Source of the DNA: Candidatus Uabimicrobium amorphum
GTDB taxonomy: Bacteria; Planctomycetota; Uabimicrobiia; Uabimicrobiales; Uabimicrobiaceae
Reading direction: 5' to 3'
Assembly (NCBI RefSeq): GCF_009002475.1
Contig: NZ_AP019860.1
Location: 7,769,547-7,809,546 of the forward strand
Length of the DNA: 40,000 nucleotides
Below are positions 1 to 40,000 of the stretch, piece by piece. The translations under genes and the position numbers were made by a program. The notes under the pieces were generated by a model. It ran no database searches. It was given only the letters and a program-made list of their open reading frames with translations, and had not been told where the DNA came from. Positions within the stretch are counted from its first letter, which is position 1. Every line of letters starts with the position of its first letter.

Positions 1-747
1 CAGCTCAGGCTTGGTAACTCCAATATCAAGTAACAGTTTTAAAGATGCAGATATTTCAAAATTTAATTCTTCTTGACCTATTTCGGCAAGGCGTCGATGG
101 TAGTATCCGTGTCCTCCTACCTCAACACCATCCTTATGCAAGCTAGAAATATCTTCTCGACTGAGATATAAATTCTGTGGTAAATCTATAGGAATCTGAC
201 TATCAAGTACTTGTTTCAAGTTTTGTAGTAGGATAATTTGCTCTTCTGCTGTCGCCATGTGCAATTTTTCTTTAAATTCTCCTTTAATCCACCATTGAAT
301 GTCTGTGTCTATTGCTGGTACTTGCATATCGACGTCAAGGAACTTTAAATGGATAGGGGAACGATTATTAGCGTAATGCAATATCATGTAGTAATGGTCT
401 ACGTATACAGGAAAATCAGCTTCTGCCGTATGTCCTGCTATTGGAAATATACAAATGGGAATTTGGAGATTTTTAGATAATGGCCAAACGACATCTTTAA
501 TCTCTTTGTAGCCATCATCAAATGTTAGCACGCAATATTTACCCTCCTCCTTTTGTTTTGATAGCTCAACAGCTTTTGTTAGCGAAGTAAAGGTATAACC
601 TTCTTTTATCAACCAATTTAGCTGTCTTTCAAAAACTTGAGGTTCAACGGCTGTCCCCCTCGCGAAATAGCATTTATTGTGTTTTGTTTTTTCACAGATT
701 CTGTGATACATTAAGATGGCTATATTTGGCACTTTTTCTCCATTCAC
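1..747 (-). CDS. Polysaccharide deacetylase (NodB/CE4-like), C-terminus cut by window edge
   Basis: Absent from the ORF track because the frame runs off the window start. My own reverse-strand translation gives VNGEKVPNIAILMYHRICEKTKHNKCYFARGTAVEPQVFERQLNWLIKEGYTFTSL...KYCVLTFDDGYKEIKDVVWPL...HGYYHRRL. The ILMYHRI and TFDDGY motifs are typical of NodB-homology deacetylases. Start is ambiguous: GTG 745-747 or ATG 709-711. It lies 8 nt downstream of the stop of the preceding ORF. Confidence 0.6.
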   Translation of the reverse strand, partial: MNGEKVPNIAILMYHRICEKTKHNKCYFARGTAVEPQVFERQLNWLIKEGYTFTSLTKAVELSKQKEEGKYCVLTFDDGYKEIKDVVWPLSKNLQIPICIFPIAGHTAEADFPVYVDHYYMILHYANNRSPIHLKFLDVDMQVPAIDTDIQWWIKGEFKEKLHMATAEEQIILLQNLKQVLDSQIPIDLPQNLYLSREDISSLHKDGVEVGGHGYYHRRLAEIGQEELNFEISASLKLLLDIGVTKPEL

Positions 748-755
748 AAATAAGA

Positions 756-1796
756 TTATGGACTTTCTATAATTGAAAAAATTTTACTATGTCTCTCTTC
801 TGATAGGTCAGCGAAGCCTATAAATTCATCATTTACAATGTCCCAACAGATAATACCCGTTTTTGTTTTACTCCATGGAGATACTTGCCAATCATATTGT
901 GGTTTTCGCCGTATTTCAGTTATGCCTACAAATAAATAGTTATCTTGGATCATAAGACCACGGCACCAACCATGATATGAAGTTTTTTCAAAAATATTTG
1001 TAAAGTACATCACATCATCTGTGACCGCGTTATTTTCTATTCTATAAGCTAAAACTCTCCCATCAACGCAGGTAATCCAGAATTTATCATTATAAATAAA
1101 TCCATCATGTGGTGGGGCAGGAGTGGTTATCATTTTGCTGAAGTCCAATATATTATAAATGCCACAAGCCGATAAACTAGTTACAAGAACTTGAGTTGGC
1201 AATATAGAGACATGGTTAATGTGAACGAAATCTCTAACTGGCTTTTGGCAAAAATTCTCCTTGTCACTTTGGTAGTAGTCTTTAGTAGGAGGAGCATCTA
1301 CTATGGGAGTATCTTGTTTTGTCCATCCTCTTTTTAAGAGTTTTGGCCAATCTTGGCGGGCAGGTGTTATGCCATGTAGCCTTTCTTTATTAAGCCATGA
1401 TGGTTGAAAGCAGTGGTTTCCTACAAAGTTTCCAGGTAAATCAAAGATATCAATACTCTCAACGCCTGTATTTACAACAAATATTTTTCCTTGGTTTACA
1501 GTTATATGATGCAAGTCATTCATACATGGTTGATGTAAAACTCCAGAGAGATCCCAGTGAGGTGGAGAAAAGCGAAATACTGCGCAAAAACCACATACTA
1601 GTAAGTCTGATTGTCCAGGTGTGCCGACCCAGGTGGCACCAGTAAAACCTTTACGAGAGACTAACAAATCTTCAGGTGGTGTAAATCGTATAATTTTTTC
1701 CACGTTGCTTCCGAAAACATCCACCTCATATACAAAACCTTCTCCTGACTCATCAAAGTATCCACCAGTCACCCATATTCTAGATTCTTTGCCCAT
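756..1796 (-). CDS. Conserved hypothetical protein, beta-propeller-like; function unknown
   Basis: 346-aa ORF packed between operon neighbours. Repeated strand-turn segments (KIFVVNTGVESIDIFD, DKFWITCVDGRVLAYRI, NYLFVGITE) suggest a propeller or lactonase-like fold. I suspect a DUF4915/TIGR03032-type family but cannot verify it. Confidence 0.5.
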   Translation of the reverse strand: MGKESRIWVTGGYFDESGEGFVYEVDVFGSNVEKIIRFTPPEDLLVSRKGFTGATWVGTPGQSDLLVCGFCAVFRFSPPHWDLSGVLHQPCMNDLHHITVNQGKIFVVNTGVESIDIFDLPGNFVGNHCFQPSWLNKERLHGITPARQDWPKLLKRGWTKQDTPIVDAPPTKDYYQSDKENFCQKPVRDFVHINHVSILPTQVLVTSLSACGIYNILDFSKMITTPAPPHDGFIYNDKFWITCVDGRVLAYRIENNAVTDDVMYFTNIFEKTSYHGWCRGLMIQDNYLFVGITEIRRKPQYDWQVSPWSKTKTGIICWDIVNDEFIGFADLSEERHSKIFSIIESP

Positions 1797-1832: not shown

Positions 1833-2525
1833 TTAAGAAAATTTACTGACCTGGTTTTCTTCAAAAAGAACTCGAACATCGAATTGAAAATGTTTTTTTA
1901 TTATGTCAGAGGCTTTTTCTCTATCGATATTTGTAATGTCTTGTGGCTTATCACATTCACAAAAAAAGAGTAACGTATCATCACGCAAAAAAAGAAATTT
2001 ATCATCTACTACCTGCGAAAATCGCAATCCTGTACTAAAAGGATACTCAACACTTCCATCAAATCTGTTTTTGATATCATCCATTATCTGTTGTTCGTTT
2101 TTTGATTCAAACGGAATTTCTGTTGATAGACGCTCCTCTCCTCTTCTAGTTTGGTAAACTTTCAAAGAGTATGGTTTAATTTCTGATCTATAGGTAATTC
2201 CGTAGCAAGTGTATCTTACTTCATAATGCTTAGGAAACAACTTAATCGATGGCCAACCATTGCCTACATCAGCAAAATAAGTTTGCCCTTCAATGTTAAC
2301 TGCCACTAAGCGATGAATATTTTGGTTGTTTATCAAAGAAGAATGCAGTTTTGCCTCAATCCCTAAACTTTTTAATGTGTTAAGAAAGCTTAATGTTTTA
2401 TCTGAGCAAGTACCACCATAGATTAGTGTTTTTGGTGTTGTTTTTGATAATAGATATAGGTTATGGAAAGGCTCTGTTTTAAATTTGTTTAACATTAAGC
2501 TTTCCACGTAATTTATACTTGTCAT
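1833..2525 (-). CDS. Arylamine N-acetyltransferase (NAT)-like acyl/acetyl-transferase
   Basis: Cys-His-Asp triad contexts match the NAT fold: IYGGTC(40)SD, H(71)RLVAV, YFAD(86)VGNGWP. The His-to-Asp spacing is 15 residues, as in NATs. At 230 aa it is shorter than typical NATs. It overlaps the upstream gene's stop by 4 nt. Confidence 0.55.
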   Translation of the reverse strand: MTSINYVESLMLNKFKTEPFHNLYLLSKTTPKTLIYGGTCSDKTLSFLNTLKSLGIEAKLHSSLINNQNIHRLVAVNIEGQTYFADVGNGWPSIKLFPKHYEVRYTCYGITYRSEIKPYSLKVYQTRRGEERLSTEIPFESKNEQQIMDDIKNRFDGSVEYPFSTGLRFSQVVDDKFLFLRDDTLLFFCECDKPQDITNIDREKASDIIKKHFQFDVRVLFEENQVSKFS

Positions 2526-3970
2526 TTGTGTGTCCTACCACGAGATGCTATTGCATTGTTGAAAACAGGGTAAGAGTGGAAATAAATTGCATCTGAACCT
2601 ATATCAAAAAACCTTTGCCAGATTTCTTTAAGTACCTGCTTCTCTGTATCACTCTCTTTGGTCAGATGGCAAACTGTCAGAGCTCGTATTCCACTGCCAA
2701 CATCAAATGATATTTTTTTGCGACGAGTGATCCTCTTTGGCAGATCAGATTCAAAAGTTTGTCTCAGTATAAACTTGTTTTCCATCGTTCCATTTTCTAT
2801 ATGAAAAAAATCATCATATTTTAAGCTAGAAGCGAAATCATGTATTTTTTTGTCTAAGAATGGGCATCTATTTTCTATAGAATGTGCCATACAACATTGA
2901 TCTATACGACGTAACTCAGTAAAGCACATATCATTAATTAATTGCTGCCGAATATTGATCCAATCATCATCCTTTTTGAACATATGATACCCACAGAAAA
3001 GTTCATCAGCTCCCTCTCCAGACAAAACAACTTTTAGTTGGTCTTTATGGGCAGATTCAGCTAATAAATACGTACAAATACCATTACTTATGATAGATGG
3101 GTTATAGCTTTCGGTGGTGTAGACCACTTTGCAAATCAATTCTCTTAGCGTGTTCTTATGGGGAGGATCGATATATTTGACCTGAATGCCTAAATATTTT
3201 TGTAGCTCTACAATATAACTATAATCAATGGAGTTTTCTTTTGCTAATGCATAGTATATTACATCTTTCCGATGCTTTGAAACTATAGAAGCTACAATCG
3301 AACTATCAAGCCCACCACTTAGAAAGACTCCAAAAGGATCTGCTGGCAAACGTTTTATTACCGCATTTTGTACAAGGTTTTTTAGAGAAGTGGCTTTGTC
3401 TAATACATTGGTTTTATGGTTTACTTCCTGATAAACTGCCCCTGTAGAAAGGTCTATCCGACTTACTCCTTTAGGTAACATCTCAAAGCTATCCACGTTT
3501 GGTATAGCTTTCAATTCACTGGTCACGAAAATTTCAGTGCCTGATCTACCTAAAAATAAAGGTTTTTTACCGATGTAGTCTCGTATACAAAATAGTTTGT
3601 GGTCTTTTCGATTGTATATCAAGCCGGAGTAAAAGCCATCTAAAACAGAAATGATTTCTACTCCAAGTTTATCGAACAAAGGTAAAATAACATTTGTATC
3701 GCATGCTCCTTTAATATCTATTTCATATTCCTCTCTTAAAGACATATGGTTGTATATTTCGCCATTAACAACAGCTATATGATCTTTGTAGTAATATGGC
3801 TGACTCCCTAGAGTACTTTTATCATTGATAGCCAGGCGATTAAAAGCTATAGCCAAATTTTCTTGATGAAAAAATTTTGTGTCGTCAGGTCCGCGGTGCT
3901 TAATCTTATGTGTGCTTTCTGATAAACGAGAGTCTGCATGTGGACCGAAGTATAAAACAATTCCGCACAT
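2522..3970 (-). CDS. Asparagine synthetase B-like glutamine-dependent amidotransferase
   Basis: MCGIV N-terminal nucleophile Cys of class II amidotransferases, HRGPDD, PP-loop FLSGGLDSS, SGEGADELFCGY. AAGGAG lies 8 nt upstream of the ATG at 3968-3970, so I trim 12 codons from the track ORF (2522..4006). Confidence 0.85.
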   Translation of the reverse strand: MCGIVLYFGPHADSRLSESTHKIKHRGPDDTKFFHQENLAIAFNRLAINDKSTLGSQPYYYKDHIAVVNGEIYNHMSLREEYEIDIKGACDTNVILPLFDKLGVEIISVLDGFYSGLIYNRKDHKLFCIRDYIGKKPLFLGRSGTEIFVTSELKAIPNVDSFEMLPKGVSRIDLSTGAVYQEVNHKTNVLDKATSLKNLVQNAVIKRLPADPFGVFLSGGLDSSIVASIVSKHRKDVIYYALAKENSIDYSYIVELQKYLGIQVKYIDPPHKNTLRELICKVVYTTESYNPSIISNGICTYLLAESAHKDQLKVVLSGEGADELFCGYHMFKKDDDWINIRQQLINDMCFTELRRIDQCCMAHSIENRCPFLDKKIHDFASSLKYDDFFHIENGTMENKFILRQTFESDLPKRITRRKKISFDVGSGIRALTVCHLTKESDTEKQVLKEIWQRFFDIGSDAIYFHSYPVFNNAIASRGRTHK

Positions 3971-3974
3971 GGAA

Positions 3975-4391
3975 TTAACTCCTTTCCACAAGGTATGCAT
4001 TAGCACACCATTCTAAAAACATTGCGAGCGCATATATACAAGGTTCCGTATATTGGGAATTAATCCATTTGTTAAACTCTCTGTGATCATGTACACCACA
4101 ATTACCATACTCTTTTATAGTCCATAGATGTGCCATGATTACTTTTGGAATGGTCGACTTTCTTTCGATAATTTTTAATTGGGCATTCAACTTATAATGT
4201 AAAATCTCGTCTTTATTTAACAGTCCTTCATAAATACAAATTTCTCCGCACAAACGTTCAAGGAGTTTTCGGCAAAGAGTAAGGCTATAGTCTGGTTCAG
4301 AATCTTTATGGATTAAAATTTTATAAACATCGTTTTGTAACCACAGAGGTAAAGAATCAAGAGTTACACTTTTGAAAATGTTGTAAATCAT
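3975..4391 (-). CDS. DUF4145-like small helical protein
   Basis: 138-aa ORF. LCRKLLERLCGEI and WTIKEYGNCGVHD resemble the R-x-x-LE and GN-x-x-x-H signatures of DUF4145. ATGA start/stop overlap with the upstream gene at 4388-4391. Confidence 0.45.
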   Translation of the reverse strand: MIYNIFKSVTLDSLPLWLQNDVYKILIHKDSEPDYSLTLCRKLLERLCGEICIYEGLLNKDEILHYKLNAQLKIIERKSTIPKVIMAHLWTIKEYGNCGVHDHREFNKWINSQYTEPCIYALAMFLEWCANAYLVERS

Positions 4392-5590
4392 ATCTTTTCT
4401 CCTTGCTGAAGATTACTACGAACTTCCATCAGAATTTCGCCCAGCATATTCTTGCCTAACCCGTCACCGCCATCTCCCCAATAACTATCATTCTCTGTGT
4501 GTTCGATGATATCTGCTTTACCTGTTGCGATTAGTTTGGCTTTTAGATCTGGATGCTGAGTAAATTTAGCAAAAATGGCTTCGCGCATAACATCATTTTT
4601 TACATTTTCCCAGTCATCTCTTTTCGGATTGTTTTTCTTGCGACCCATTTTTGATGCTTTTACTGGGGATGGAGCCATACGCAACTCCTCTTCGTAAGGA
4701 GTTCCTGCATATTTTTGTGCTTGGTAGTAATGCTCAACTGTCATCCATATTTTGTTTTTGAGATAAACAGGGTGTTTAGAAAAATTAGAGAAGCATCCAT
4801 AAGGCTGTTCTATCTGATAGAATAGTATTCTGCTGGAATGTCTTTCCTTTGGATAAAAATTTTTGCGGATATTGAAACTATTAGCGCGGCTTATACCATC
4901 CAAAAAAAATGTGTTTATGCCCTTTTCTTCAGCAATATTAATCGCGGAACTCAGACTTAGTATAAAATCCTTAGAAGTAAACCCCCTAAGATCATTTTTT
5001 GGCTTGTATCTGGGGTTGTATTTACACAATAAATTCCAAAATTTGCACAGTACGTCGAAGTCAGCATTCAAATTATGTGCAAATTCAAAAAAATCATTTA
5101 GGAAAGTTATTTGCATAGCAGAAGCAATGTTATATACATACATACCTAGCTCTGCTGTTTCAAAAGAAGTTTTCAAAAAGAAATGTTTCAAATCTTTACT
5201 CAAAAGGTTCGTAACTTCTTTTATAGAGTTGCATTCACCCCCAATGAGATAGGTACGGTGTTGATTCTCTGTCTCACAGTATCTAAACAATACAACAATT
5301 TGTTTTTTGTATTTTTCTGCAAAGTAGCGTGCAGTTCCTGGTGGAAGTATAGTCTGAATGATGTTAATTCTTGCTTGTGACGTTTTTATTATGGATTCAA
5401 TAGTAGAAGTGTTTATTTCTCCACCTTCCATTTCGCCAGCAGAAACACATATAAAACAAAAATGTGTTTTGAGCGCCGCATCCATGTTTTGAGAGTATTT
5501 AACGATATTTGAATCGTAAATAATTGCAGAAGGAAACATTTCATGAATAGCTTTTCCTCTGCCATCATATCCAATAATTGAGATACTCAT
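4388..5590 (-). CDS. Two-domain protein: degenerate UDP-sugar dehydrogenase-like N-terminus fused to a NADAR (YbiA/COG3236/DUF1768) N-glycosidase domain
   Basis: aa ~254-400 are NADAR: FYQIEQPYGCFSNFSKHPV, WMTVEHYYQAQKY, DSYWGDGGDGLGKNMLGEILMEVR. aa 1-240 resemble UDP-glucose/GDP-mannose dehydrogenase: ETAELGMYVYNIASAMQITFLNDFFEFAHNLNADFDVL matches the central-domain helix. The glycine loop is degenerate (IIGYDGRGKA) and there is no Cys where the catalytic Cys is expected (RGFTSKD). AGGAGG SD precedes the ATG at 5590. Confidence 0.75.
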   Translation of the reverse strand: MSISIIGYDGRGKAIHEMFPSAIIYDSNIVKYSQNMDAALKTHFCFICVSAGEMEGGEINTSTIESIIKTSQARINIIQTILPPGTARYFAEKYKKQIVVLFRYCETENQHRTYLIGGECNSIKEVTNLLSKDLKHFFLKTSFETAELGMYVYNIASAMQITFLNDFFEFAHNLNADFDVLCKFWNLLCKYNPRYKPKNDLRGFTSKDFILSLSSAINIAEEKGINTFFLDGISRANSFNIRKNFYPKERHSSRILFYQIEQPYGCFSNFSKHPVYLKNKIWMTVEHYYQAQKYAGTPYEEELRMAPSPVKASKMGRKKNNPKRDDWENVKNDVMREAIFAKFTQHPDLKAKLIATGKADIIEHTENDSYWGDGGDGLGKNMLGEILMEVRSNLQQGEKI

Positions 5591-5647: not shown

Positions 5648-8446
5648 TTAATCTAAGCAAAAAAAGTGGTTAAGTTTGTCTCTTTTGGTGTACAGATAAT
5701 CGCGATTTTCTTTACGGATTTTAGGTTGAGTATTTACAGGCTCAACTACCAGACCCGCTTCTCTAAGACAAGATATCTTTCGAGGGTTATTGGTTATGAG
5801 TCTGACACTCTTGATGTTTAAATCCAAAAGAATATCTACAACTTTCTGATAGTCTCTAACATCCTGTTTTAGCTGAAGTTTTTCAAAGGCTTCAACTGTG
5901 TCCATTTTTTGCTTTTGCATTAAAGATATTGCTTTGATTTTGTTAGAAAGTCCCTGTCCTCTCCCCTCCTGATGGAGGTGAAAAATAAGTCCTTCCTGTT
6001 GAGAAGCAATGCGTTGCATTGCCTCTTCAAGTTGATCAGCGCAATCACAATCATTTGATTTAAATAGTTCAGAGGCCATGCAAGAGGAATGTATTCGTAC
6101 TAGAGGTATACTACTAAACTGATGTACATCTCCATAACTAACAAGGCGAATCTCTTCATCTCCGGTGTCATACATACGAAATTCTCCATAGTTAGTAGGG
6201 AGATAACACCAGTTGTTTAAATATAGGTCTCTTTTAGGAGTATAGTTTTCTATTTGAGGTTTTAATGAATCTATAAATTTTTTTATTTCATCTTTTGATA
6301 GGGTTTTTACTCTTGATTCTATTGCTTCAAACGTAGTTTCGCTGTACCACTGCGATAACTGTTCTACAAACTCTTCAAGCTCACCTGTTTGGTCGTAGTT
6401 CTTTATATACTTTTGTATACCGCGAGCTCGAAAATAGTTTATCTTTAAAGATAATAGGCGCTTTTTTTGGTATTCCTGCACTTTATCACAGATAACATTC
6501 TTTGTTTCTTCATGAAATTCAAAGTTGTGTACCGCATGTCCTTTTAAAATCTCTTTTAAGGCGGCGTAAAGAGAAGATCCTTGTATTTCCCCAACAACTT
6601 TTTGAATATTAAGCTGTGGCTTTGCTTCAATCTTTCTTTTATGGATAACAGGAAAATGAACATGCTTAATTGTGAGGCCATGGTAGTAACGATTGATAAC
6701 TGCCCAAATCATATCTGAGCGTCTTACTTCTTTTCCAGATACTTCGGCAACTGCATTCGGTGCTTGTAAAGCCAAGGGGTTCAAAATGAAAGTATTACCG
6801 CCTCTATTCACAGACTCTTTTGCTTCGTTTATTGGATCAGTAGGTAAGTCTACCAATATCGGCCTTGTAAGCGGTTCGCCAGCTAAAAGATAAGGAGCAC
6901 GTTCTAGTAAGCGCGTTCTTGCTTCTTTGACCGTTTCTCCCTCGTAGATAGGCGTTAACCAGTACGGTGTTTCCAGATGTCCTGTATGTAGTCGCGATAA
7001 ATCGTAGTAATAATCTGGATATACCAGGCGAGTTTGTCTATTTTCATTACTACGATCAGGTAAAACATCATCAGGTTTTAAATTATCTAGCCATTGTAAA
7101 TTATGGATTAAATCTACAAGTTGTATTCGAGATCCGTTCAATGGAGGATTAGGAGATGCATATTCAAAAGAGCCTAACAAAACATCGACTTTCCATCTGC
7201 GAAAACTTGGCAGCCAGGGAAGATATAGTCTTGCGCGGAAATCAAGCCTCATATCATCATCAAGTATCCAACCAATAGAATTTTGTTTTTTGTCCATAAA
7301 GCGATGAATATATCGCTGTAAAATAGTCCTTGCTTTTCCAATACCTAGCAATGATTTTTCTCTTTGAAAACCTTTGCCAAATATTCCACGTGAATTATCT
7401 CTGATTTGTTGACTAAGGCTGATAAAATGGCAATTTATCCCATCCATTTTTGTAAGTTCCAGTAAGTTTTGTCCATCTCCACCATTTTCCATCACAAGTA
7501 CATCAAGGTCTAACAAGAAAGATTCTTCTCTCAAACAACGCAAATCCTCTAGTAAAGGCTTTAACTGTTGTGCATTGTTACTTATAACAGCAACAATTAA
7601 ATGGAATGGCTCTGGATCTCTGGGAAAATGTATCTTGGCAGTAGGGATTGATGCTATCTGTTTTGGAACAAAACCAAAAAGAGTTTTACTCCTTTCCAGA
7701 AACATTTGCTTTTGCTCATTACTCATTTGGCTTTGATATTTTTGCCAAAATGCCTGGAGCCCTTCTAGCTTTGAAGGACTTCCATATGAAGAAAGGCGTA
7801 ATCTATCAGAACAACAATAGTGATGGACGGTATGTCTCTCCGTTGATACTGTTTTCACACCCATTTGTGCAAGGCGGATATATAGATCTCTATCAGTACA
7901 ACTTGCTAAATTTTCATCGAAGAGCCCTGCTTCAAGGATTGCAGACAAGCGTACAAATGTATTTGATCCTTGAATTCCAGGGTTTGTGACTAATAGTTCA
8001 TCAATATTTAAAACATTGGGAATGCTATCATTGTAGGTTTTACTACTATATCGAGTAATCCCTCCTATTACTACATCGTAGTTTGGAGTGTGTTTTAGAC
8101 ATGTTTCTAAATGGCATGGATGCCATTCATCATCATCATCGAGGATAGCAATAAATGTATTTTCGGGATTTTTAAAATTATCTGTTACAAATACCAGACC
8201 AGTATTCCACGCTCCCGAAGCGCCTTTAGCTCTTTTGTTTTTAAGAAAAATAAATTTTACGCCTGGTGGTATTCTGTCTGTTAGAATCTCTTCCAGTTTG
8301 GAATTATTCTTTGAATCATCAATGACAACGATATAATCAGGTAATCGGTTTTGATTTAGTACTGATGGTAACGAACGATCAAGCAATAAGTCATCCCGAT
8401 CACAAGTTGCAATTAAAACAACAACTTGGGTTGAAGTTGAATTCAT
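5648..8446 (-). CDS. Tri-domain protein: family-2 glycosyltransferase + second DxD (GT-A-like) region + C-terminal GTP cyclohydrolase II (RibA-like) domain
   Basis: aa 8-230 are GT2: VVVLIATCDRDD, SVLNQ, IVVIDDS, AILDDDDEW. aa ~285-470 form a second DxD region: LIVAVISNN, GWILDDDMRLD. aa ~744-932 (nt ~5651-6217) are GCH II: LPTNYGEFRMY, VRIHSSCMASELFKSNDCDCADQL (Zn Cys triad), HQEGRGQGLSNKIKA, DTVEAF, VRLITNNPRK. Confidence 0.8.
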   Translation of the reverse strand: MNSTSTQVVVLIATCDRDDLLLDRSLPSVLNQNRLPDYIVVIDDSKNNSKLEEILTDRIPPGVKFIFLKNKRAKGASGAWNTGLVFVTDNFKNPENTFIAILDDDDEWHPCHLETCLKHTPNYDVVIGGITRYSSKTYNDSIPNVLNIDELLVTNPGIQGSNTFVRLSAILEAGLFDENLASCTDRDLYIRLAQMGVKTVSTERHTVHHYCCSDRLRLSSYGSPSKLEGLQAFWQKYQSQMSNEQKQMFLERSKTLFGFVPKQIASIPTAKIHFPRDPEPFHLIVAVISNNAQQLKPLLEDLRCLREESFLLDLDVLVMENGGDGQNLLELTKMDGINCHFISLSQQIRDNSRGIFGKGFQREKSLLGIGKARTILQRYIHRFMDKKQNSIGWILDDDMRLDFRARLYLPWLPSFRRWKVDVLLGSFEYASPNPPLNGSRIQLVDLIHNLQWLDNLKPDDVLPDRSNENRQTRLVYPDYYYDLSRLHTGHLETPYWLTPIYEGETVKEARTRLLERAPYLLAGEPLTRPILVDLPTDPINEAKESVNRGGNTFILNPLALQAPNAVAEVSGKEVRRSDMIWAVINRYYHGLTIKHVHFPVIHKRKIEAKPQLNIQKVVGEIQGSSLYAALKEILKGHAVHNFEFHEETKNVICDKVQEYQKKRLLSLKINYFRARGIQKYIKNYDQTGELEEFVEQLSQWYSETTFEAIESRVKTLSKDEIKKFIDSLKPQIENYTPKRDLYLNNWCYLPTNYGEFRMYDTGDEEIRLVSYGDVHQFSSIPLVRIHSSCMASELFKSNDCDCADQLEEAMQRIASQQEGLIFHLHQEGRGQGLSNKIKAISLMQKQKMDTVEAFEKLQLKQDVRDYQKVVDILLDLNIKSVRLITNNPRKISCLREAGLVVEPVNTQPKIRKENRDYLYTKRDKLNHFFCLD

Positions 8447-8775: not shown

Positions 8776-9222
8776 ATGTCTTTGAGTACAAAAAATAGCT
8801 TTGGAGAATTAAAAATGGAAGAAAAAAATCTACAAGTTACAAGCAACGTAGGACTTTACTATGTTTGCTACAAGTTGTCATTACAAGGTTGGAATGCTAT
8901 GCCTACAGCAAGAAATGCTAAAGGAGTCGATATCATTGCTTATAACTCTGATTGCTCAAAAATGATAAGCATACAGGTTAAAACCCTTAGCAAACGTAAT
9001 GCTGTCCCCTTGGGAAGAGATCTTGGCAAAGTGATGGGAAATTATTGGATTATTGTAAATGAAATAGATAAAGAACCAAAGACTTTTGTCCTAATTCCTG
9101 AAGAAGTTAAAAAATTAGCAGAAAAAAGGGAGAAAGAGGGGCAAGTATCATACTGGTTACAGGTGAAATCGTACTCTAATGAAGAGTATTTCGAAAAATG
9201 GGATAGAATAGGAGAGATTTAG
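8776..9222 (+). CDS. Small PD-(D/E)XK-like hypothetical protein
   Basis: GVDIIAY...ISIQVKT matches a D...(E/Q)xK nuclease-fold core pattern. The likelier start is ATG 8815, with GGAG at 8803-8806 eight nt upstream. It is the only plus-strand gene between two minus-strand units. Confidence 0.4.
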   Translation: MSLSTKNSFGELKMEEKNLQVTSNVGLYYVCYKLSLQGWNAMPTARNAKGVDIIAYNSDCSKMISIQVKTLSKRNAVPLGRDLGKVMGNYWIIVNEIDKEPKTFVLIPEEVKKLAEKREKEGQVSYWLQVKSYSNEEYFEKWDRIGEI

Positions 9223-10703: not shown

Positions 10704-11816
10704 ATGTCTAAAACACTCAAAGTGCGTACTCTTTGTACAAAACAAGATAAAACAACAATTTATTCTTTTTTTCTGCCAGGAAAACTCATACTTGAGATTG
10801 CTGATATTTCAAGAATAAAGAAAGATCAAAATGAAAAATTGTTAGGATACCAAAGAAATGAAGTTAACAATCATGTAAAAGAAATAGTTGAGTATTTAGA
10901 CTCAAAAAATATTATTTTTCCTAACTCCATCATTTTAGCTATATCTAGTGCTGTTTCTTTCAAGCAAAGTCGAGGACCTCAAGTTGGGGGCAATTATTGT
11001 ACTGCTGGAATTCTTGAAATTCCTAAGACAATTTCTGGCAAAAAACCTGCATGGATTGTAGATGGTCAACAGAGAAGTCTTGCACTTATGAAGTGCAAAA
11101 ATAAAAATTTAGTTGTTCCCATCACAGCATTCATAAGCGATGACTTCGAAGTTCATCGAACACAATTTTTACTAGTTAACAAAGTTAAACCCTTACCAAA
11201 AGGTTTGATCAATGAACTTCTTCCAGAAGTGAATACTCTTTTACCACCAAGTTTAGCAAAAAATAAAATTCCATCGGCAATATGTAATCTTCTCAATAAA
11301 GATCCAGAATCTCCATTCCGAGGTCTCATTATCAGGCAAACAACAGATAGAAAAATTGAAAAAGCAGCAGTCGTTACAGATAACTCCATTATTCAAATGG
11401 TAAGAAGTAGTTTGAACAATCCTCATGGATGTTTGTACCAATATAAAAACGTAGCCAGTGGCGAAATTGATTTTGAAAGTGTTAGGTTAACTCTAAATCT
11501 CTACTGGGGTGTTGTGAAAGATTTATTTCCTAATGCTTGGGGAAAACCAGCGACTCAAAGTCGTTTGATGCATGGTGTTGGGATAAAGTCTATGAGCGTT
11601 TTAATGGATAGAGTTATGGTAAGTCATACAATAAATGAAAAAAATTTACAGCAAACAATAAAACAGAAAATGTCCATCATACCACCTGTATGTGCCTGGA
11701 CAGAGGGAAAGTGGGAGCATTTAGGAGGCATTCAGTGGAATCATCTTCAAAATACATCAAGTCACATCAAATTACTTTCAAATATGCTTATTAGAGTTTA
11801 TATGGGGGTTAACTAA
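10704..11816 (+). CDS. dpdB: DGQHR-domain (DndB/ParB-like) protein, DpdB-like
   Basis: LLGYQRNEV, PAWIVDGQQRSLAL, QFLLVNKVKPLPKGLINELLP, RLMHGVGIKSM. The TAA stop is followed immediately by the GTG start of the DpdA gene. Confidence 0.75.
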   Translation: MSKTLKVRTLCTKQDKTTIYSFFLPGKLILEIADISRIKKDQNEKLLGYQRNEVNNHVKEIVEYLDSKNIIFPNSIILAISSAVSFKQSRGPQVGGNYCTAGILEIPKTISGKKPAWIVDGQQRSLALMKCKNKNLVVPITAFISDDFEVHRTQFLLVNKVKPLPKGLINELLPEVNTLLPPSLAKNKIPSAICNLLNKDPESPFRGLIIRQTTDRKIEKAAVVTDNSIIQMVRSSLNNPHGCLYQYKNVASGEIDFESVRLTLNLYWGVVKDLFPNAWGKPATQSRLMHGVGIKSMSVLMDRVMVSHTINEKNLQQTIKQKMSIIPPVCAWTEGKWEHLGGIQWNHLQNTSSHIKLLSNMLIRVYMGVN

Positions 11817-14111
11817 GTGAAATTTTTTTTTGCTGAAAATATAGATTATATTGATCCCAACTTTAATTTTGATACCGAAACTTGGTCGAAAAATAGAATT
11901 CCTCAAATTGATGATGTATATCCACATGAAGTATTTGAGACATGTCCGTATGATGGACTCTTGGTTTCTCGTAATATTGTAGGGGATTTATTTCATAAAG
12001 GAAAGTTTTCAACTAACCAAAAGTATCGCCTTTTTAGAGAAGGCGTTCATAAATATTTTAGGCTTCCAAAAACAAATTTTCCTGTCATCGGTGATTGTGG
12101 TTCGTTTTCATATATAAACATGGATTTACCTCCTTTTACTAATAATGAAATTATTGAGTACTATCAGATGTGTAATTTTACTCATGGAGTTTCTATAGAT
12201 CATGTTATCGCAAAAATGCAAACTGTTTGGGACAATGAGAAAAGGCGACCATCTGAAATTACTAAAAGAGCAGAGTTCTCTTCTCGAAGTGCTATAGAAT
12301 TTTTAAAAATTTGCCAAGCGAAAAAAGTTGACTTTACACCAATTGGAGCAGTGCAAAGTTGGAGTCCCAAATCTGCTGGTAAGTACGCAAAAACTTTAGT
12401 CGATGCCGGATATAAGTACATAGGGTTAGGAGGAATGGCTTATCAACCAACAGACTTTCTTTATGATGCTATTTCTGAAGTTCGTTCAAAGATCCCAAGT
12501 AATGTAAAATTGCACATTTTTGGTTTTAATAGGTTAGAGAAAATTGAAAAATTTACTGGTTTGGGTATTGATTCTTTTGATAGTACTTCCCCGATACTAA
12601 AAGCATTCAAAGATGAAGATGATAACTACTTCTTTGGTAAATCCAAAAGATATCGAGCTATTAGAATCCCCCAAGTTTACGAAAATATGGACATAAAGAG
12701 AAAAGTTCAGAGAGGTGTTATAAATCAAGACGTTGCATCTCAATTGGAACAAGATGCCTTGATGAAAATAAGAAATTATGCAAAAGAAAAGACTGGTTTA
12801 GAAGAATCATTAGAAGCAATAGTTACTTATGAAAACTATGTTTTTGGAAAAAGTTGCCGTCAAAAATATCGTAATGTACTTTATGAAAGTCCTTGGAAAA
12901 ATTGTACTTGCCCAATATGTAAGCAGTTAGGGATAGAAGTTATAATTTACAGAGGAACAAATAGAAATAAACGTAGAGGATTTCATAACCTTTTCCATTT
13001 CTACCAAGAACTTCAAAGGGTAAGAGAAATGAAACAACAAATTGTGGCACCGTGCATAAAAACAGAGCAGAGTCCAGGCAAGTATATATATTCATTTGTA
13101 GTGAATGGTAAAGACATCTCAAAATTTGCCTCTGTTTCGAGAGTTAAAAGAGGAGATAATGGAGATCTGTTAGGCTATCAGCGACCTGAGGTGATGCAGC
13201 ATATCCAAGAAATAAAGGAGTACATAGAAAGTGACAATTCAATACTTCCAAACTCTTTAGTTATTGCTTTTCAGAAGAACATTGATTTTTGTACTTGCGA
13301 AAAAATAAATGTTTACAGTGAACTGGGTAAGTTGACCATAAGCTATAGTGATAAAAATAAACCTGGATGGATTGTAGATGGTCAGCAAAGAGCAGCAGCT
13401 TTAAGAGTAGCAAATCAACCGAATTTTCCTATTTCGGTTGTTGCTTTCGTATCAAACGGAGAAAATGATGAAAGACAACAATTTGTTCTTGTAAATAATA
13501 CAAAACCTCTTCCAAAAAGTTTAATATATGAGTTACTACCAAGTTTTGAAGAACATGTACCAAGTAAACTAAAGACTAGGCGTGAAGCTTATATTATTCT
13601 TGAAAAACTTAATGTTGATAGAAATTCACCTTTTTATATGCGTATAAAAACAATGACTTATAGAGGAATAGAAACTGCGAATATAAAAGACATGTCTATC
13701 TTAAAAATGCTTGAAAATAGCCTTACCAACGGTATCCTTTTTAAGTATAGACATAATCCACAAAAAGTATCTGACATACTTCTAAATTATTGGAATGCTG
13801 TAAAAACATACTATTCAGATATATGGCATCTCCCTCCGAGAAGAAATCGGTTAACACATGGCGTTGGTATTGTAAGTATGGGATATCTCATGGATACTAT
13901 CTCATGGCGACTTATGAAGCGTGGAAAAGTTCCTTTATCTGAGAGATATTTAGATGAATTAAAAATTCTTGGTAAAGATGTTCCATGGAATAATGGTACT
14001 TGGAAGTTTAGTAAATCAATGATTTTACCATGGAATGAAATTCAAAATACAATAAGGCATATAGACATGGTCACCAATTTTTTATTAAGAAGGTACACTC
14101 ATAAAAATTAA
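11817..14111 (+). CDS. dpdA: DpdA-like DNA (7-deazaguanine) transglycosylase fused to a second DGQHR (DpdB-like) domain
   Basis: aa 1-400 are TGT-like: PVIGDCGSFSY, GVSIDH, GLGGMA, LHIFGFN, DSFDSTSP, and the zinc motif NCTCPIC...RRGFHN. aa ~415-764 are DGQHR: LLGYQRPEV, PGWIVDGQQRAAAL, QFVLVNNTKPLPKSLIYELLP, RLTHGVGIVSM. Confidence 0.8.
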   Translation: MKFFFAENIDYIDPNFNFDTETWSKNRIPQIDDVYPHEVFETCPYDGLLVSRNIVGDLFHKGKFSTNQKYRLFREGVHKYFRLPKTNFPVIGDCGSFSYINMDLPPFTNNEIIEYYQMCNFTHGVSIDHVIAKMQTVWDNEKRRPSEITKRAEFSSRSAIEFLKICQAKKVDFTPIGAVQSWSPKSAGKYAKTLVDAGYKYIGLGGMAYQPTDFLYDAISEVRSKIPSNVKLHIFGFNRLEKIEKFTGLGIDSFDSTSPILKAFKDEDDNYFFGKSKRYRAIRIPQVYENMDIKRKVQRGVINQDVASQLEQDALMKIRNYAKEKTGLEESLEAIVTYENYVFGKSCRQKYRNVLYESPWKNCTCPICKQLGIEVIIYRGTNRNKRRGFHNLFHFYQELQRVREMKQQIVAPCIKTEQSPGKYIYSFVVNGKDISKFASVSRVKRGDNGDLLGYQRPEVMQHIQEIKEYIESDNSILPNSLVIAFQKNIDFCTCEKINVYSELGKLTISYSDKNKPGWIVDGQQRAAALRVANQPNFPISVVAFVSNGENDERQQFVLVNNTKPLPKSLIYELLPSFEEHVPSKLKTRREAYIILEKLNVDRNSPFYMRIKTMTYRGIETANIKDMSILKMLENSLTNGILFKYRHNPQKVSDILLNYWNAVKTYYSDIWHLPPRRNRLTHGVGIVSMGYLMDTISWRLMKRGKVPLSERYLDELKILGKDVPWNNGTWKFSKSMILPWNEIQNTIRHIDMVTNFLLRRYTHKN

Positions 14112-30407: not shown

Positions 30408-32621
30408 TTATTGCGTTGCTTGCTTAAATTCCTGGAAAAATACATGGGTATTGTGGAATCCTCTACGACGGTTGCGGTTATTTCCACGGAAAATGGCAAC
30501 TTCTATACCATTTTTTTCGCATATCGAATTATTTGTCGTTTTCCATGGGCAGTCCCTTAATAGTTCCTCATATAAACGCTCGTGCTTTTCTCTGTTGTCT
30601 CCGACAAATTGATCATACTCCAGAACATACTTTAATGTCTCTTCGAGAGATAGTGATCCTTGGTCAAAATTCCTCAATGCTTTCAGTGCTGCTTTTTCTA
30701 ATTTAACAAATTCTTGTAAACACCCACGTTCTTGTTCTAACATCTTTTTTATTCTAGGATTACCGATCTTTGCTTGAGGTACTCTAATCGCACTATATCT
30801 TTTATCGTAAGTAGACCAAAAGTTGTCACGTGCACTTAACCAAGCGCGCCTTAACTGCGATGCGCTATCACAACTGTAAACTCCAAGGTTGATAAAATTT
30901 GAAATAGCGTCCAGGCGTCCTATCCCAAATAAATGTATTCGAGTTTCTGGCTTTCTTATTTTATCAATAGAGGTTAATATTTCAATAATTGTTTCTGTTT
31001 GACTACGGACTAAACTACCCAGAGCAATATAACTATAGCCTAGTTGTTGATATTCCTCGAACATCTTAGTGTAGGAATCAGCATCCCATCCTTGACAAGC
31101 AGCAATAGGTTTAAAGTTGTATTTTTTTTGTTTGTATAAATTTATAAACTCTTTGCCATGGTCAAGTGTAATTTGCCACCTTCTCTTTGCTTCTGAAAAA
31201 TCAAACTCTGTTTTTTGATAAGTACAAAGTCGATTATCGAACAAATCAGAAGATTTTGGAGGAGATTTTACTACACGATACTTTTTATCTTTTGAAATAG
31301 ATTCGAATTTATCTTTTGAGATAGGTTCATAATTACCATTTTTATTCTCAACCCAATATGTTTTTCTTTGGCATACGCTTGGAACAATCAAATGATCAAT
31401 GGTAACTCCATAATTAAAATCTAATCTTTCATAATAATCAATAATTTCCTCTGTTGTATAAGGTGGATTATACTCATTTAGGTAACCAAAAGCGCCACAA
31501 TCTCCCATCACTGGAACTTCTTTTGGACATCGAAGATATGCATGAATACCTAAAGATTCAACCAGTTGTTTCTTTTTTTTACTTTCTTCAATAGTCACTT
31601 TTGAAACTAATATGCCATCGTAATTGTATTGTTTCATCAATTCATGTGAATAATAGTCATCACGATAAGAATCATGTTGCAGGCCAAAAAGTTCTGAGTA
31701 GTGAAAATCATTAATGAAATCATAACGTGGATCTACACGATCATCCCATTCTGGTATAAAATAGAGCATTTTTGCGTCTTTTCTTGGAGTGTAAGCAATT
31801 TCTACTCGTTTTGGTGGTTTGTAATCCGTAGGTAACCCTAAACGTAACTCAAATGGGCATTTTTCAGACAATTTATATCCTTTTGGCAAGTTACCCAAGT
31901 CTTTATCCTTCTTATGTTGAGAATTGTTTGCTTTTCTCATCGTATTTAAAATAGTGACTATTTCTTTGGGTTGTTTTTTCAATGTATTTAAAATGTTTGT
32001 TTTTTGACATACATGCTGGGCAAATCTTTTAAAGATTTCTCCTTTTAAGCCAACCAAACCACAATGAAAATCTTTAGCCTCTTGAATACTTGTTGGATAA
32101 ATTGTTCCATTGGAGCCGTTAAGCTGTTTTTCTTGTGAACAGAAAAAAATTAATGGTATAGAAAACTGTTCATTTTTTTCAATTTGTAAAGACCTTAAAT
32201 ATTTTTTCCCCAGTAATACAATACCTAAATCGTATTTTCCTAACACAGAACGAAAATCTTTTGGTATTTTTAGTAATTTTGACCACTCATCAATTTCTTT
32301 GGCTTTCATAGTATCGAAAGTACATTCATAGGGTACAATTTCTTTATTACTTCCTATAAAACCATAGCCAGCTGAAACAATCCATAGATCTACATTAGCT
32401 TGTTTTTCCCTTAATTTTTTTATCCCCTTCATTAATCGTATGTGCTGCTCTCCTGTATACATATTCTCAGCAGTACATTTATAATTATCTAGCTTTTCAG
32501 TTTTTGATTTTAGCAGTTCTGGTTGTTTAAAATCTTCTTGCACGAGCTGGTTATCGGGTTTCGATGCTTTTTTTCCTGTGCACGAAGTAATCACTAGTAA
32601 TTTGGGTAAGTCTTTTTGCAT
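30408..32621 (-). CDS. Second DpdA-like transglycosylase paralogue with an N-terminal YaaA(DUF328)/DUF6884-like domain
   Basis: aa ~285-737 are collinear with the other DpdA: PVMGDCGAFGY, GVTIDH, IHLFGIG, SCDSAS, RYSAIRVPQ, GIEVAIFRGNNRNRRRGFHN. aa 1-250 carry LLVITSCTGKK and IVSAGYGFIGSNKEIVPYE. It sits directly upstream of dpdE. Confidence 0.7.
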   Translation of the reverse strand: MQKDLPKLLVITSCTGKKASKPDNQLVQEDFKQPELLKSKTEKLDNYKCTAENMYTGEQHIRLMKGIKKLREKQANVDLWIVSAGYGFIGSNKEIVPYECTFDTMKAKEIDEWSKLLKIPKDFRSVLGKYDLGIVLLGKKYLRSLQIEKNEQFSIPLIFFCSQEKQLNGSNGTIYPTSIQEAKDFHCGLVGLKGEIFKRFAQHVCQKTNILNTLKKQPKEIVTILNTMRKANNSQHKKDKDLGNLPKGYKLSEKCPFELRLGLPTDYKPPKRVEIAYTPRKDAKMLYFIPEWDDRVDPRYDFINDFHYSELFGLQHDSYRDDYYSHELMKQYNYDGILVSKVTIEESKKKKQLVESLGIHAYLRCPKEVPVMGDCGAFGYLNEYNPPYTTEEIIDYYERLDFNYGVTIDHLIVPSVCQRKTYWVENKNGNYEPISKDKFESISKDKKYRVVKSPPKSSDLFDNRLCTYQKTEFDFSEAKRRWQITLDHGKEFINLYKQKKYNFKPIAACQGWDADSYTKMFEEYQQLGYSYIALGSLVRSQTETIIEILTSIDKIRKPETRIHLFGIGRLDAISNFINLGVYSCDSASQLRRAWLSARDNFWSTYDKRYSAIRVPQAKIGNPRIKKMLEQERGCLQEFVKLEKAALKALRNFDQGSLSLEETLKYVLEYDQFVGDNREKHERLYEELLRDCPWKTTNNSICEKNGIEVAIFRGNNRNRRRGFHNTHVFFQEFKQATQ

Positions 32622-34547: not shown

Positions 34548-35042
34548 ATGGAAAAACAACAAGTAATAGATAGTATCGGCAGTACAAGATTAGAAGAATA
34601 CAAGAATAAGGCCTTCTTGGCATACCAACGTGGCCAAGATGAACTTGGGCACGGTTGGTTAAACTTGGCCGTAGAAACGGCCAGTTACTATGAATTAGAT
34701 TTTGATGTGAGAAACTTCACTTCTGCTATAGAAAATAAATCCAACGAAAATCAATTTGAACACAGAAAGTCCGATTTACAAAATTATATACGTAGTCGGA
34801 TCTTCAATATTTCTGAAAATTGTTCGTATACACCTCCAAAAGAAACTTCCAAAGATTTCGGTTTTTCTAATGAGATTGAGCAGTCTGTACAAGAGTTTGT
34901 TGTAAAATGGCACATTCATATGCAAATGGTAAACTCACAATTGCAGATACAAAGAGCTTTTGATCGTATGAATCAGCAAATTTTGCAAAACTCTTTTATG
35001 GAGAAAACTTTAAATCAGGCATGGGCATCCGTTGCAGCATGA
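34548..35042 (+). CDS. Hypothetical protein
   Basis: The track ORF starts at TTG 34530. ATG 34548 (MEKQQV) is more likely. No motif recognised. Its 3' end overlaps the convergent gene by 28 nt. Confidence 0.35.
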   Translation: MEKQQVIDSIGSTRLEEYKNKAFLAYQRGQDELGHGWLNLAVETASYYELDFDVRNFTSAIENKSNENQFEHRKSDLQNYIRSRIFNISENCSYTPPKETSKDFGFSNEIEQSVQEFVVKWHIHMQMVNSQLQIQRAFDRMNQQILQNSFMEKTLNQAWASVAA

Positions 35043-36592: not shown

Positions 36593-36595
36593 AAT

Positions 36596-39049: not shown

Positions 39050-39485
39050 CGATGAGCCTTTTTATGCTTTGTATGTCTTGCTTTGCCTTTTGATAGTTTT
39101 GTTGGAACTGTTGTTTGAAATTTTGCATCTGTTCAAAATCGCCAGTAAAGTGATTGTTATTTTGTTGTGGGTTCGAAAACTTAAATTGCGCTGGAGTCAT
39201 ATCTATGTCGCCAGAGCTTTTATCTTCTTCATATGAGCGTTGCAGTGCGTTTACATTATCTACCATATTTTGCGTAGCTATTTGTTTTTGTTGCTGTAGA
39301 TTCATTTTATTTGGAATGGCAACGGGGGTTATTCTGGGCCTTGGTTTTAAATTTGCAGCAGTGTTAAGAAGATAGGTGTTTTTTTCTAATTGAGTTAGCC
39401 TGGTTCTTTCAGGATTTAGAATTTCAACCACATCATCTTCAATTTCTTGTGCTAGCTTGTGTTTATCTGGTTTTTCGTTTGTCAT
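39027..39485 (-). CDS. Q/N-rich hypothetical protein
   Basis: I start at ATG 39483-39485 (MTNEKPDKHK), preceded by GGAGGA, and drop 12 codons from the track ORF. No motif recognised. Confidence 0.4.
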   Translation of the reverse strand: MTNEKPDKHKLAQEIEDDVVEILNPERTRLTQLEKNTYLLNTAANLKPRPRITPVAIPNKMNLQQQKQIATQNMVDNVNALQRSYEEDKSSGDIDMTPAQFKFSNPQQNNNHFTGDFEQMQNFKQQFQQNYQKAKQDIQSIKRLIDDRQASE

Positions 39486-40000
39486 TGTAGTCCTCCATAA
39501 TCTGTTGGTACGGCTGAACAATGCTATGGTAATTTGCCAGTACCAAATCCACTATATTGTCTAAATAGCCATCGTTTAAACGCGATGATTTCTTAAATTG
39601 TTTCATGAAAAATTCAATCATTTCACATACCTCGGGTAAAACAGCGGTTTTCTCATGGTTAAAAGAGTGTGAGATTACTACTGCGGTCAGCGTATTTGCT
39701 TCTTTTGTTGTGGTAAGTTCTTGTCGTAGGGATGTAATCTGAGTCTGTAAATTCTCATTATTTTCTTGTGCATGTTGTAGCTCAGCTTTGAGGTTCTGTA
39801 TTTCACTAATGTACTCTTGGGTTTTGCTCAAGTCTTTAATATCACTATGTAGAACGTCGTTTGCCTTTTGTGGAGAAGGCTGCTGCTCCGTTTGTGATTT
39901 CATTTCATCAAATTTTTGCCACAAGTTTTGGAAGTAATTTAACTCTTCACGCTCAAACTGGTTTGTATAGCTGTGTATGTTTGCAAAAAGTTGAGATACT
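39463..40000 (-). CDS. Coiled-coil hypothetical protein, probably N-terminally truncated by the window edge
   Basis: The track start (39924) is a TTG. My translation shows the frame stays open to position 40000 (…FANIHSYTNQFEREELNYFQNLWQKF…). Heptad-like, Q/E/L-rich. Confidence 0.4.
   Translation of the reverse strand, partial: VSQLFANIHSYTNQFEREELNYFQNLWQKFDEMKSQTEQQPSPQKANDVLHSDIKDLSKTQEYISEIQNLKAELQHAQENNENLQTQITSLRQELTTTKEANTLTAVVISHSFNHEKTAVLPEVCEMIEFFMKQFKKSSRLNDGYLDNIVDLVLANYHSIVQPYQQIMEDYNDKRKTR

Follow-up and report, generated by a model that had tools for sequence, protein, structure and literature searches.

In the pathways to the cytosine nucleoside antibiotics blasticidin, gougerotin and amicetin, a cytidine monophosphate hydrolase frees the base and a glycosyltransferase re-glycosylates it, and a uronamide and an amide synthase of the arylamine N-acetyltransferase (NAT) type also feature. 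In the case of vicine, from faba bean, the GTP cyclohydrolase II VC1 and a proposed hydrolysis by COG3236 are followed by glucosylation (bioRxiv 10.1101/2020.02.26.966523). The COG3236 family, also known as NADAR or YbiA, is annotated as an N-glycosidase for the ribosylaminopyrimidine intermediates of riboflavin biosynthesis (PMC5312566); fusions of RibA to COG3236, and the activity of YbiA/COG3236, are credited to Frelin et al. 2015, as cited in PMC5312566 and bioRxiv 10.1101/2020.02.26.966523. The RibA–NADAR fusion studied so far, that of Vibrio, lies within the rib operon and is taken to serve damage control or overflow (PMC5312566). Here, we describe a protein of 932 residues encoded in a 40,000-nucleotide stretch of the genome of Candidatus Uabimicrobium amorphum (Planctomycetota; contig NZ_AP019860.1, positions 7,769,547 to 7,809,546; hereafter, the window), in which a RibA-like domain is joined to glycosyltransferase domains, together with the gene cassette to which it belongs. 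In the reading that we prefer, and to which we attach an even chance, this cassette ring-opens GTP, frees the pyrimidine base, and then glycosylates and tailors it.

The open reading frame is intact from its ATG to its stop codon and runs along the minus strand, from 8446 to 5648; a plus-strand reading of the same interval meets stops only and was discarded. It encodes a three-module enzyme, comprising two GT-A glycosyltransferase domains and a non-canonical GTP cyclohydrolase II, which we denote RibA*. Pfam recognizes Glycos_transf_2 (PF00535; residues 10–142, E = 2e-16) and GTP_cyclohydro2 (PF00925; residues 747–901, E = 3.4e-43), and returns no match for residues ~260–740. An initial annotation, made from the letters of the sequence, had described an unusual fusion of a GT2 domain, a second glycosyltransferase-like region and a GTP cyclohydrolase II domain, and had suggested a search for the PF00535 plus PF00925 architecture. 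The intact frame, the presence of both Pfam domains in one chain, and the fold comparisons given below all uphold this description, and the motifs that it quoted are all to be found in the protein: GWILDDDMRLD (residues 392–402), HSSCMASELFKSNDCDC, HQEGRGQGLSNKIKA, DTVEAF and LITNNPRK. The same annotation had allowed that the fusion might be a sequencing artefact joining separate genes. This is not the case: an identical protein is present in two assemblies of Ca. U. amorphum, one of them a 9.5-Mb chromosome; an independent metagenomic homologue with 63% identity, P0001, has the same GT2–GT-A–RibA layout; and in further relatives (P0002–P0004 and P0006; also L001), the GT2 domain, the middle region, RibA and NADAR all lie in one chain. 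Direct GT2–RibA fusion is rare, being seen in six proteins among the 120 best matches from a collection of 5.8 billion proteins; association at the level of the operon is common. NCBI/PGAP names the protein 'GTP cyclohydrolase II RibA', where 'RibA' is probably an over-annotation, and its NADAR neighbour is listed in UniProt as 'Swarming motility protein'; for cassette proteins such as these, both labels probably mislead.

The RibA* domain aligns with Escherichia coli RibA (PDB 2bz0) with an E-value of 4e-32 in HMMER, and it belongs to the same fold and family (PF00925). It passes the RibA subfamily model NF001591 (163.8 bits; cutoff 148) and does not reach the ribA equivalog model TIGR00505 (159.2 bits; cutoff 205.85). 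The three zinc cysteines pointed out in the initial annotation are confirmed by this alignment as Cys789, Cys800 and Cys802; Arg128 of the E. coli enzyme is retained as Arg864, and Lys154 and the QEGR motif are also kept. RibA* differs from E. coli RibA in that Tyr105 has become Ile, Tyr88 His, Glu53 Ser and Thr56 Ala; moreover, it is fused to two GT-A domains, has NADAR as its partner instead of RibD/RibH, and falls below the TIGR00505 cutoff. We aligned 54 cassette RibA domains, drawn from related loci and proteins. Every one of them retains the zinc cysteines, Arg128, Lys154 and QEGR, His51 is conserved, and Arg49 is present in 53; Glu53 is replaced by Ser throughout and Thr56 by Ala in 52. 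Column 88 holds His in 40 domains and Tyr in the other 14, and column 105 holds Val (45), Ile (seven), Leu (one) or Cys (one), and Tyr in none. A wider search found 7755 RibA relatives among 1.84 billion representatives, the best 150 of which were examined: the ordinary RibA proteins among them have Tyr at both 88 and 105, and a variable position 53 that is mostly Glu; across this wider family, a non-Tyr residue at 105 (Leu, Met, Val, Ile or Cys) co-varies with Ser or Ala at 53. For the 134 RibA representatives outside the cassette, column 105 is Tyr in 106 and Met in six, and column 88 is Tyr in 131 and Met in none. Judged by these alignments, RibA* belongs to a non-canonical subfamily marked by a non-Tyr residue at 105 and Ser or Ala at 53.

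These comparisons bear directly on the product of the enzyme. The initial annotation had noted that the Tyr preceding QEGR is His in this protein, and had taken that residue to determine the product. The substitution itself is real, as the alignment to 2bz0 equates E. coli Tyr88 with His823; the role assigned to it belongs to another tyrosine. The Streptomyces Tyr/Met product switch of Spoonamore and Bandarian (2008), between DARPP and a formyl-retaining product, reportedly maps to E. coli Tyr105, which is Ile840 here, and we take this position to be the residue needed for removal of the formyl group to give DARPP. The occurrence of Met at column 105, and never at column 88, agrees with Tyr105 as the switch. 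The conclusion of an altered product survives nonetheless, because position 105 is Ile in this protein and never Tyr in the cassette clade; by analogy with the Streptomyces enzymes, the RibA* product probably keeps its formyl group. The SCO6655-type GTP cyclohydrolase II of Streptomyces coelicolor (Spoonamore and Bandarian) reportedly gives a formyl-keeping product, and has a non-aromatic residue at the E. coli 105 position. RibA* shares this feature and pairs it with Ser53, as the wider family does with Ser or Ala, but it differs from the SCO6655 type in having Val or Ile instead of Met, in the additional, clade-specific change of Tyr88 to His, and in its genomic context. The broader proposal of the initial annotation, that a non-riboflavin pyrimidine is made from GTP and coupled to glycosyl transfer, is strongly supported as a general idea by the cassette context described below, whereas the residue argument built on Tyr88 was wrong. 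As a separate observation, tandem RibA-like proteins with two or three such domains (545–992 residues; P0132, P0136, P0138, P0142, P0175, P0180, P0185 and P0209) are also present among the RibA representatives, some of them with a non-Tyr residue at 105.

The N-terminal part of the protein does contain the classic GT2 motifs that had been noted there, in keeping with its PF00535 match (E = 2e-16). The family profile of this domain matches the C-terminal GT-A region of K4CP (chain residues 386–584) and other GT2 structures; sequence-profile searches found solved relatives for the N-terminal domain only. For the middle region, in which a second glycosyltransferase-like segment with a DxD motif had been suspected, AlphaFold2 modelling and a fold search of the PDB bear the suspicion out, and predict that it is a second, divergent GT-A domain. 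The whole-protein model drew on an alignment of 38 sequences, and that of residues 275–740, with a pLDDT of 91.8, on one of 66. The best PDB fold matches to the former are tandem GT-A proteins, namely, the heparosan synthase PmHS2, the chondroitin polymerase K4CP, LARGE1 and COLGALT1. When the mid region alone was compared using Foldseek, all of the significant matches were GT-A glycosyltransferases (E ~1e-6; identity 8–13%), including hyaluronan synthase, MtdL, PcManGT, AvpGT and GlfT2. The region is further characterized by the invariant motifs DDD, SPNPP, PDYYYDLSR-H--H-E, NRGG and RRSDM-WA. Like K4CP (2z86), PmHS2 (8vh8) and LARGE1, the 932-residue protein presents two DXD-bearing GT-A domains in a single soluble chain; it departs from them in that its second domain is recognizable only structurally, at the identities just given, in its fusion to RibA*, in its own conserved motifs (PDYYYDLSR and RRSDM-WA), and in having no capsule export genes nearby. 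Giant proteins of ~1700 residues with the order GT2–mid–methyltransferase–GT2, and without RibA*, are encoded in Dehalococcoidia and in one Planctomycetota genome (L052 10010–18258; L014 9721–14802); the L052 gene adjoins a type I restriction R subunit and a Mu-type transposase.

The remainder of the operon extends 3' of the 932-residue gene on the same strand, with intergenic gaps of −4 to 57 nt (Table 1). The second gene encodes a NADAR protein, the core motif of which is conserved in 51 homologues; it scores above the cutoff of the TIGR02464 model, which is named 'riboflavin biosynthesis intermediates N-glycosidase', and in this it resembles YbiA/COG3236, as does the cassette as a whole in that a RibA–NADAR fusion is its commonest form. 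Across 49 cassette homologues, the AsnB-like amidotransferase retains its N-terminal Cys and its SGGLDS PP-loop. The closest homologous operon, on the contig of P0001 (L082), matches it in all seven genes and in their order. An Rfam scan of the whole window gave no match to an RNA element or riboswitch, and a promoter and terminator scan 5' of the 932-residue gene gave a signal below the shuffle expectation. The first 250 residues of the NADAR protein (4841–5590) occupy the spot at which most relatives have RibA* fused, and have weak similarity to NDP-sugar dehydrogenases; a search of the PDB with this segment gave no significant match. BLAST finds the segment in L002, L003 and L004, and it is apparently also present in L082, which encodes a NADAR protein of 398 residues. 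The idea that it is a degenerate RibA was rejected, as it is not RibA-like.

Table 1. Coordinates of the 932-residue gene, its domains and key residues, the other genes of the operon and the Bacteroidota form of the cassette; positions are those of the window unless a locus is named.
Feature	Position	Strand	Evidence and remarks
Whole open reading frame: GT2, second GT-A, helical bundle, RibA*	5648..8446	-	First gene of the operon; AlphaFold2 model, mean pLDDT 84.3
GT-A domain 1, classic GT2 (residues ~7–258)	7673..8428	-	PF00535 E=2e-16; DDS motif; DDDDEW (DXD) at residues 103–108
Predicted GT-A domain 2 ('mid', residues 281–~612) and helical bundle (residues 614–735)	6242..7606	-	No Pfam match; model and fold search
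DDD (residues 396–398), DXD-type metal/nucleotide-sugar motif of GT-A domain 2	7253..7261	-	In 20–66 homologues, D396 invariant, D397 and D398 nearly so
RibA* domain (residues 745–932), non-canonical GTP cyclohydrolase II	5651..6214	-	PF00925 E=3.4e-43; NF001591; TIGR00505; PDB alignment
Zinc-ligand Cys789, Cys800 and Cys802 (E. coli Cys54, Cys65 and Cys67)	6041..6082	-	Conserved in 54/54
Ile840 codon, E. coli Tyr105 position (NKIRAY versus NKIKAI)	5927..5929	-	HMMER alignment to 2bz0
His823 codon, E. coli Tyr88 position (LLYHRQEGR), flagged in the initial annotation	5978..5980	-	HMMER alignment
NADAR protein (400 residues), C-terminal NADAR/YbiA-type N-glycosidase domain (residues 255–394)	4388..5590	-	PF08719 E=2.9e-39; TIGR02464 139.9 bits (cutoff 73.7)
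Small DUF4145 protein, this sub-lineage only	3975..4391	-	127-residue reading frame at the same position in L082
AsnB-like glutamine-dependent amidotransferase	2522..3970	-	TIGR01536 295 bits (cutoff 267); true start Met13, giving MCGIV
NAT-like (PF00797) acyltransferase	1833..2525	-	Cys40-His71-Asp86 triad aligns to NAT 2bsz; conserved in 47 homologues
DUF4915/TIGR03032-like protein, occasional cassette member	756..1796	-	Also adjoins the cassette in L056, L058, L060 and L082
NodB-type polysaccharide deacetylase, frequent accessory, truncated by the window end (308 residues in the full contig)	1..732	-	Homologues beside the cassette in at least 12 loci
Bacteroidota cassette: LOG-like/SLOG, NodB, GT2-mid with an extra C-terminal segment, M20 hydrolase, AsnB, NAT	L063 8660-15705		Also L064, L067, L073, L075, L076 and L078

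To place this operon in a wider setting, we used a profile of residues 1–740 to collect 77 loci from species-representative genomes, and searched these and three earlier contigs (80 loci in all) with the window proteins. In 43 loci, GT2-mid, RibA*, NADAR, AsnB-like and NAT-like genes are adjacent, nearly always in that order, and eight more are cut by contig ends. The 43 are spread over Pseudomonadota, Myxococcota, Planctomycetota, Bacteroidota, Campylobacterota and Poseidoniales archaea, and the hosts include Vibrio, Photobacterium, Psychrobacter, Shewanella, Alteromonas, Oceanobacter and Arcobacteraceae. Fusions between the members are frequent: RibA*-NADAR occurs in 44 loci and AsnB-NAT in two, and the other forms are AsnB-NAT-GT2-mid, mid-RibA*-NADAR, mid-RibA*-NADAR-NAT, GT2-mid-RibA*-NADAR and GT2-mid-RibA*, the last being that of the window. 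Fusions that join RibA*-NADAR to just one GT-A domain always use the second. No further family, such as transporters or regulators, recurs beside the cassette in more than four of 51 loci. Of 123 genes that flank the cassette in 22 diverse loci, the commonest encode NDP-sugar epimerases/dehydratases (five loci), followed by NodB deacetylases (three), and the rest include scattered restriction, Abi-like and integrase genes. In the reading that we prefer, the cassette is a self-contained, horizontally mobile biosynthetic unit of tandem GT-A, RibA*, NADAR, AsnB-like and NAT-like proteins, to which a NodB deacetylase, an NDP-sugar epimerase/dehydratase, other tailoring enzymes and a kinase-like segment are optional additions. 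This last is a segment of ~180 residues (G-x-G...K, HPKN, DYG) without a match in a Pfam scan, seen in P0078 (residues ~446–620) and at the C-termini of the proteins at L063 9998–12769 and L016 4678–6306; it is the insert that gives rise to GT2 forms of ~1150 residues, it is also found fused to RibA*-NADAR, and it is absent from the window operon. A phage origin of the cassette was considered and rejected, as no relatives were found on IMG/VR viral contigs.

A variant from Bacteroidota (Table 1) is informative as to the step that the cassette might require. In it, RibA*-NADAR is missing, and a LOG-like protein of SLOG cluster 4 (GGGxGTxxE) is present in the cassette. LOG proteins are nucleotide phosphoribohydrolases, and the replacement of RibA*-NADAR by such a protein would point to base release as a needed step; by this analogy, both versions would split a nucleotide into its base and ribose 5-phosphate. 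In the Bacteroidota GT2-mid proteins, the extension at the C-terminus was considered as a RibA domain and rejected. One of these cassettes, L078, contains a carbamoyltransferase in addition.

The preferred reading, in which GTP is the source of a base that is freed, glycosylated and tailored, can be set out as four steps. RibA* would open the imidazole ring of GTP with release of pyrophosphate; given that Tyr105 is replaced by Ile or Val, it would probably stop at the 5-formamido product (FAPy ribotide), and not proceed to the riboflavin precursor. NADAR would then cleave the labile ribosylamine bond to give ribose 5-phosphate and the free pyrimidine, which would be FapyGua or, if deformylated, 2,5,6-triaminopyrimidin-4-one; a retained formyl group would, we suggest, shield the oxidation-prone triaminopyrimidine until a later deformylation. 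The second GT-A domain may transfer the sugar of an NDP-sugar to this base, and the first may add another. Finally, the AsnB-like enzyme might amidate an activated carbonyl or a carboxylate such as that of a uronic acid, acylation of an aromatic amine might fall to the NAT-like enzyme, and NodB might take off a formyl or acetyl group. The setting favours such a scheme: in contrast to the studied Vibrio fusion, the cassette RibA lacks Tyr105 and is embedded among glycosyltransferase, amidotransferase and acyltransferase genes, and this company implies that the released base is used. The same logic, of N-glycosidase, glycosyl transfer, amidation and N-acylation, is that of the cytosine nucleoside antibiotics, and the first two steps and the glucosylation of the proposed vicine pathway match it as well. 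The cassette differs from both in that its enzymes are non-orthologous and its base would be a ring-opened guanine, and from the actinomycete antibiotic clusters in occurring in many phyla, those of archaea included.

What is established is which domains are present, that their catalytic residues are conserved, that position 105 has changed, and that the members are linked both in genomes and by fusion; the chemical steps, the substrates and the product we infer from these facts, and this tempers our confidence in the scheme, as do several further considerations. The effect of replacing Tyr105 by Ile or Val is extrapolated from the Tyr/Met switch reported for Streptomyces, and the carboxylate substrate of the AsnB-like enzyme is hypothetical. 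No conserved exporter or resistance gene was found beside the cassette in the 51 loci. The existence of GT2-mid relatives without RibA*-NADAR indicates that the glycosyltransferase core is not strictly dependent on a GTP-derived base. Moreover, the folds that best match the whole protein are those of polysaccharide polymerases, which fits a glycan as well as a small molecule. More tentatively still, the cassette could make a new class of metabolite, namely, a pyrimidine with ring-opened guanine as its core that has been glycosylated, amidated and acylated (a glycoside of FapyGua or of triaminopyrimidinone), with the second GT-A domain as a new nucleobase-glycosylating enzyme and many marine bacteria and Poseidoniales as its makers; this fuller statement is a possibility that we hold loosely.

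The polymerase-like folds give substance to a different account, which we judge to be unlikely: the tandem GT-A domains would form a glycosaminoglycan-like polymerase, AsnB would amidate uronic acids, NodB and NAT would de-acetylate and re-acylate amino sugars, and RibA*-NADAR would provide a pyrimidine substituent or have a side role. PmHS2, K4CP and LARGE1 as best matches, with two GT-A domains in one chain, the profile match of the N-terminal domain to K4CP residues 386–584, the recurrence of NodB deacetylases and NDP-sugar epimerases/dehydratases beside the cassette, and the GT2-mid relatives that do without RibA* are all as this account would have it. Against this, Wzx/Wzy, ABC/Kps and synthase-type export genes are not conserved nearby, and the flanks that we examined are not polysaccharide loci; furthermore, the repeated, tight fusion of the second GT-A domain to RibA*-NADAR would be puzzling were the pyrimidine of no consequence, and the LOG-like substitute in Bacteroidota points to a nucleobase. 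At the other extreme, the organism's own riboflavin RibA might merely be fused to a glycosyltransferase. The NF001591 score, the intact zinc site and Arg128 are what such an enzyme would show, but the replacement of Tyr105, Tyr88 and Glu53 and the TIGR00505 shortfall are not; in addition, no rib genes were found in the 40-kb window, and the obligatory N-glycosidase partner, usually fused to RibA*, would be expected to destroy the riboflavin intermediate, so that we find this explanation scarcely credible.

The surroundings of the operon invite two further explanations. One is that the cassette is an anti-phage or conflict system, in which RibA*-NADAR destroys GTP, or a toxic nucleoside-like molecule is made on infection. 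It is true that the window cassette lies between a 7-deazaguanine DNA modification/restriction (Dpd) system and a bacterial HORMA gene further along the contig, that AbiEii, reverse transcriptase, type I R subunit, McrBC and integrase genes are found near other loci, and that the NADAR protein weakly matches the PADLOC candidate PDC-M42C and an NCBIfam anti-phage NADAR model. However, only about seven of the 123 flanking genes are defence-like, a share to be expected in any variable island; PADLOC has no match for four of the five core proteins (GT2-RibA*, AsnB and NAT proteins giving none); NADAR scores 139.9 bits, above cutoff, with the riboflavin-intermediate glycosidase model as against 85 bits (cutoff 240) with the anti-phage model; no sensor or effector domain was seen; and the cassette is absent from IMG/VR viral contigs. 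A defence role is, on balance, improbable. The other explanation makes the cassette an accessory of the neighbouring Dpd system, for instance in making or glycosylating the base that DpdA inserts into DNA. GTP starts both pathways, DpdA is a base-exchange enzyme, and the cassette directly adjoins FolE2, DpdB, the DpdA-DpdB fusion and DpdE-K-like genes; yet homologues of DpdA, DpdB, DpdE, DpdF, DpdH and FolE2 occur in none of the 80 fetched loci (51 with RibA*), and the cassette and the Dpd genes nearest to it are transcribed in divergent directions. The contig of the closest homologous operon, L082, begins 142 nt upstream of the operon's first gene and is uninformative on Dpd. We regard this connection as very improbable.

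The enzyme families of the cassette are all known, and their combination matches no described pathway that we found; a full-text literature search, with many subscription papers outside its coverage, retrieved no description of the cassette or of the GT2–RibA architecture, and the pathway and its product appear to be undescribed. If GTP is indeed opened so that its base can be glycosylated, the cassette gives a purpose to RibA-NADAR fusions, which otherwise look futile because a riboflavin intermediate is made and then destroyed. It also brings to light a distinct RibA subfamily (Ser53, His or Tyr88, Val or Ile105) that annotation pipelines label as riboflavin RibA. The cassette is compact, with four to seven genes, and its hosts Vibrio, Photobacterium, Psychrobacter, Shewanella and Alteromonas can be cultured, so that the product should be findable by ordinary genetics and metabolomics; given the distribution of the cassette across phyla and in abundant marine archaea, that product could be a common, unrecognized marine metabolite.

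Beyond the operon, a Dpd island occupies positions 9705–34380 of the window. It includes a DpdA-DpdB fusion (11817–14111) and a separate DpdB (10704–11816), a second DpdA with an N-terminal DUF6884 domain (30408–32621), FolE2, a YhhQ transporter and a Q_salvage protein; no match to DpdC or DpdD was found within the window. Between the cassette and FolE2, a plus-strand open reading frame of 148 residues (8776–9222) has a weak match to Mrr-like restriction endonucleases (E = 0.0055), and the annotation of the full contig places a gene of 135 residues on the opposite strand in this region. Beside the Dpd island, at 35015–39924, are genes for a Replic_Relax protein and an 817-residue protein with weak similarity to TrwB/AAA_10, which suggests a mobile-element remnant. 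Outside the window but still on this contig, a gene for a bacterial HORMA-domain protein (L081 22039–22590) lies ~9 kb beyond the cassette, and, with Dpd on the other side, the cassette of Ca. U. amorphum sits between two conflict-type systems.

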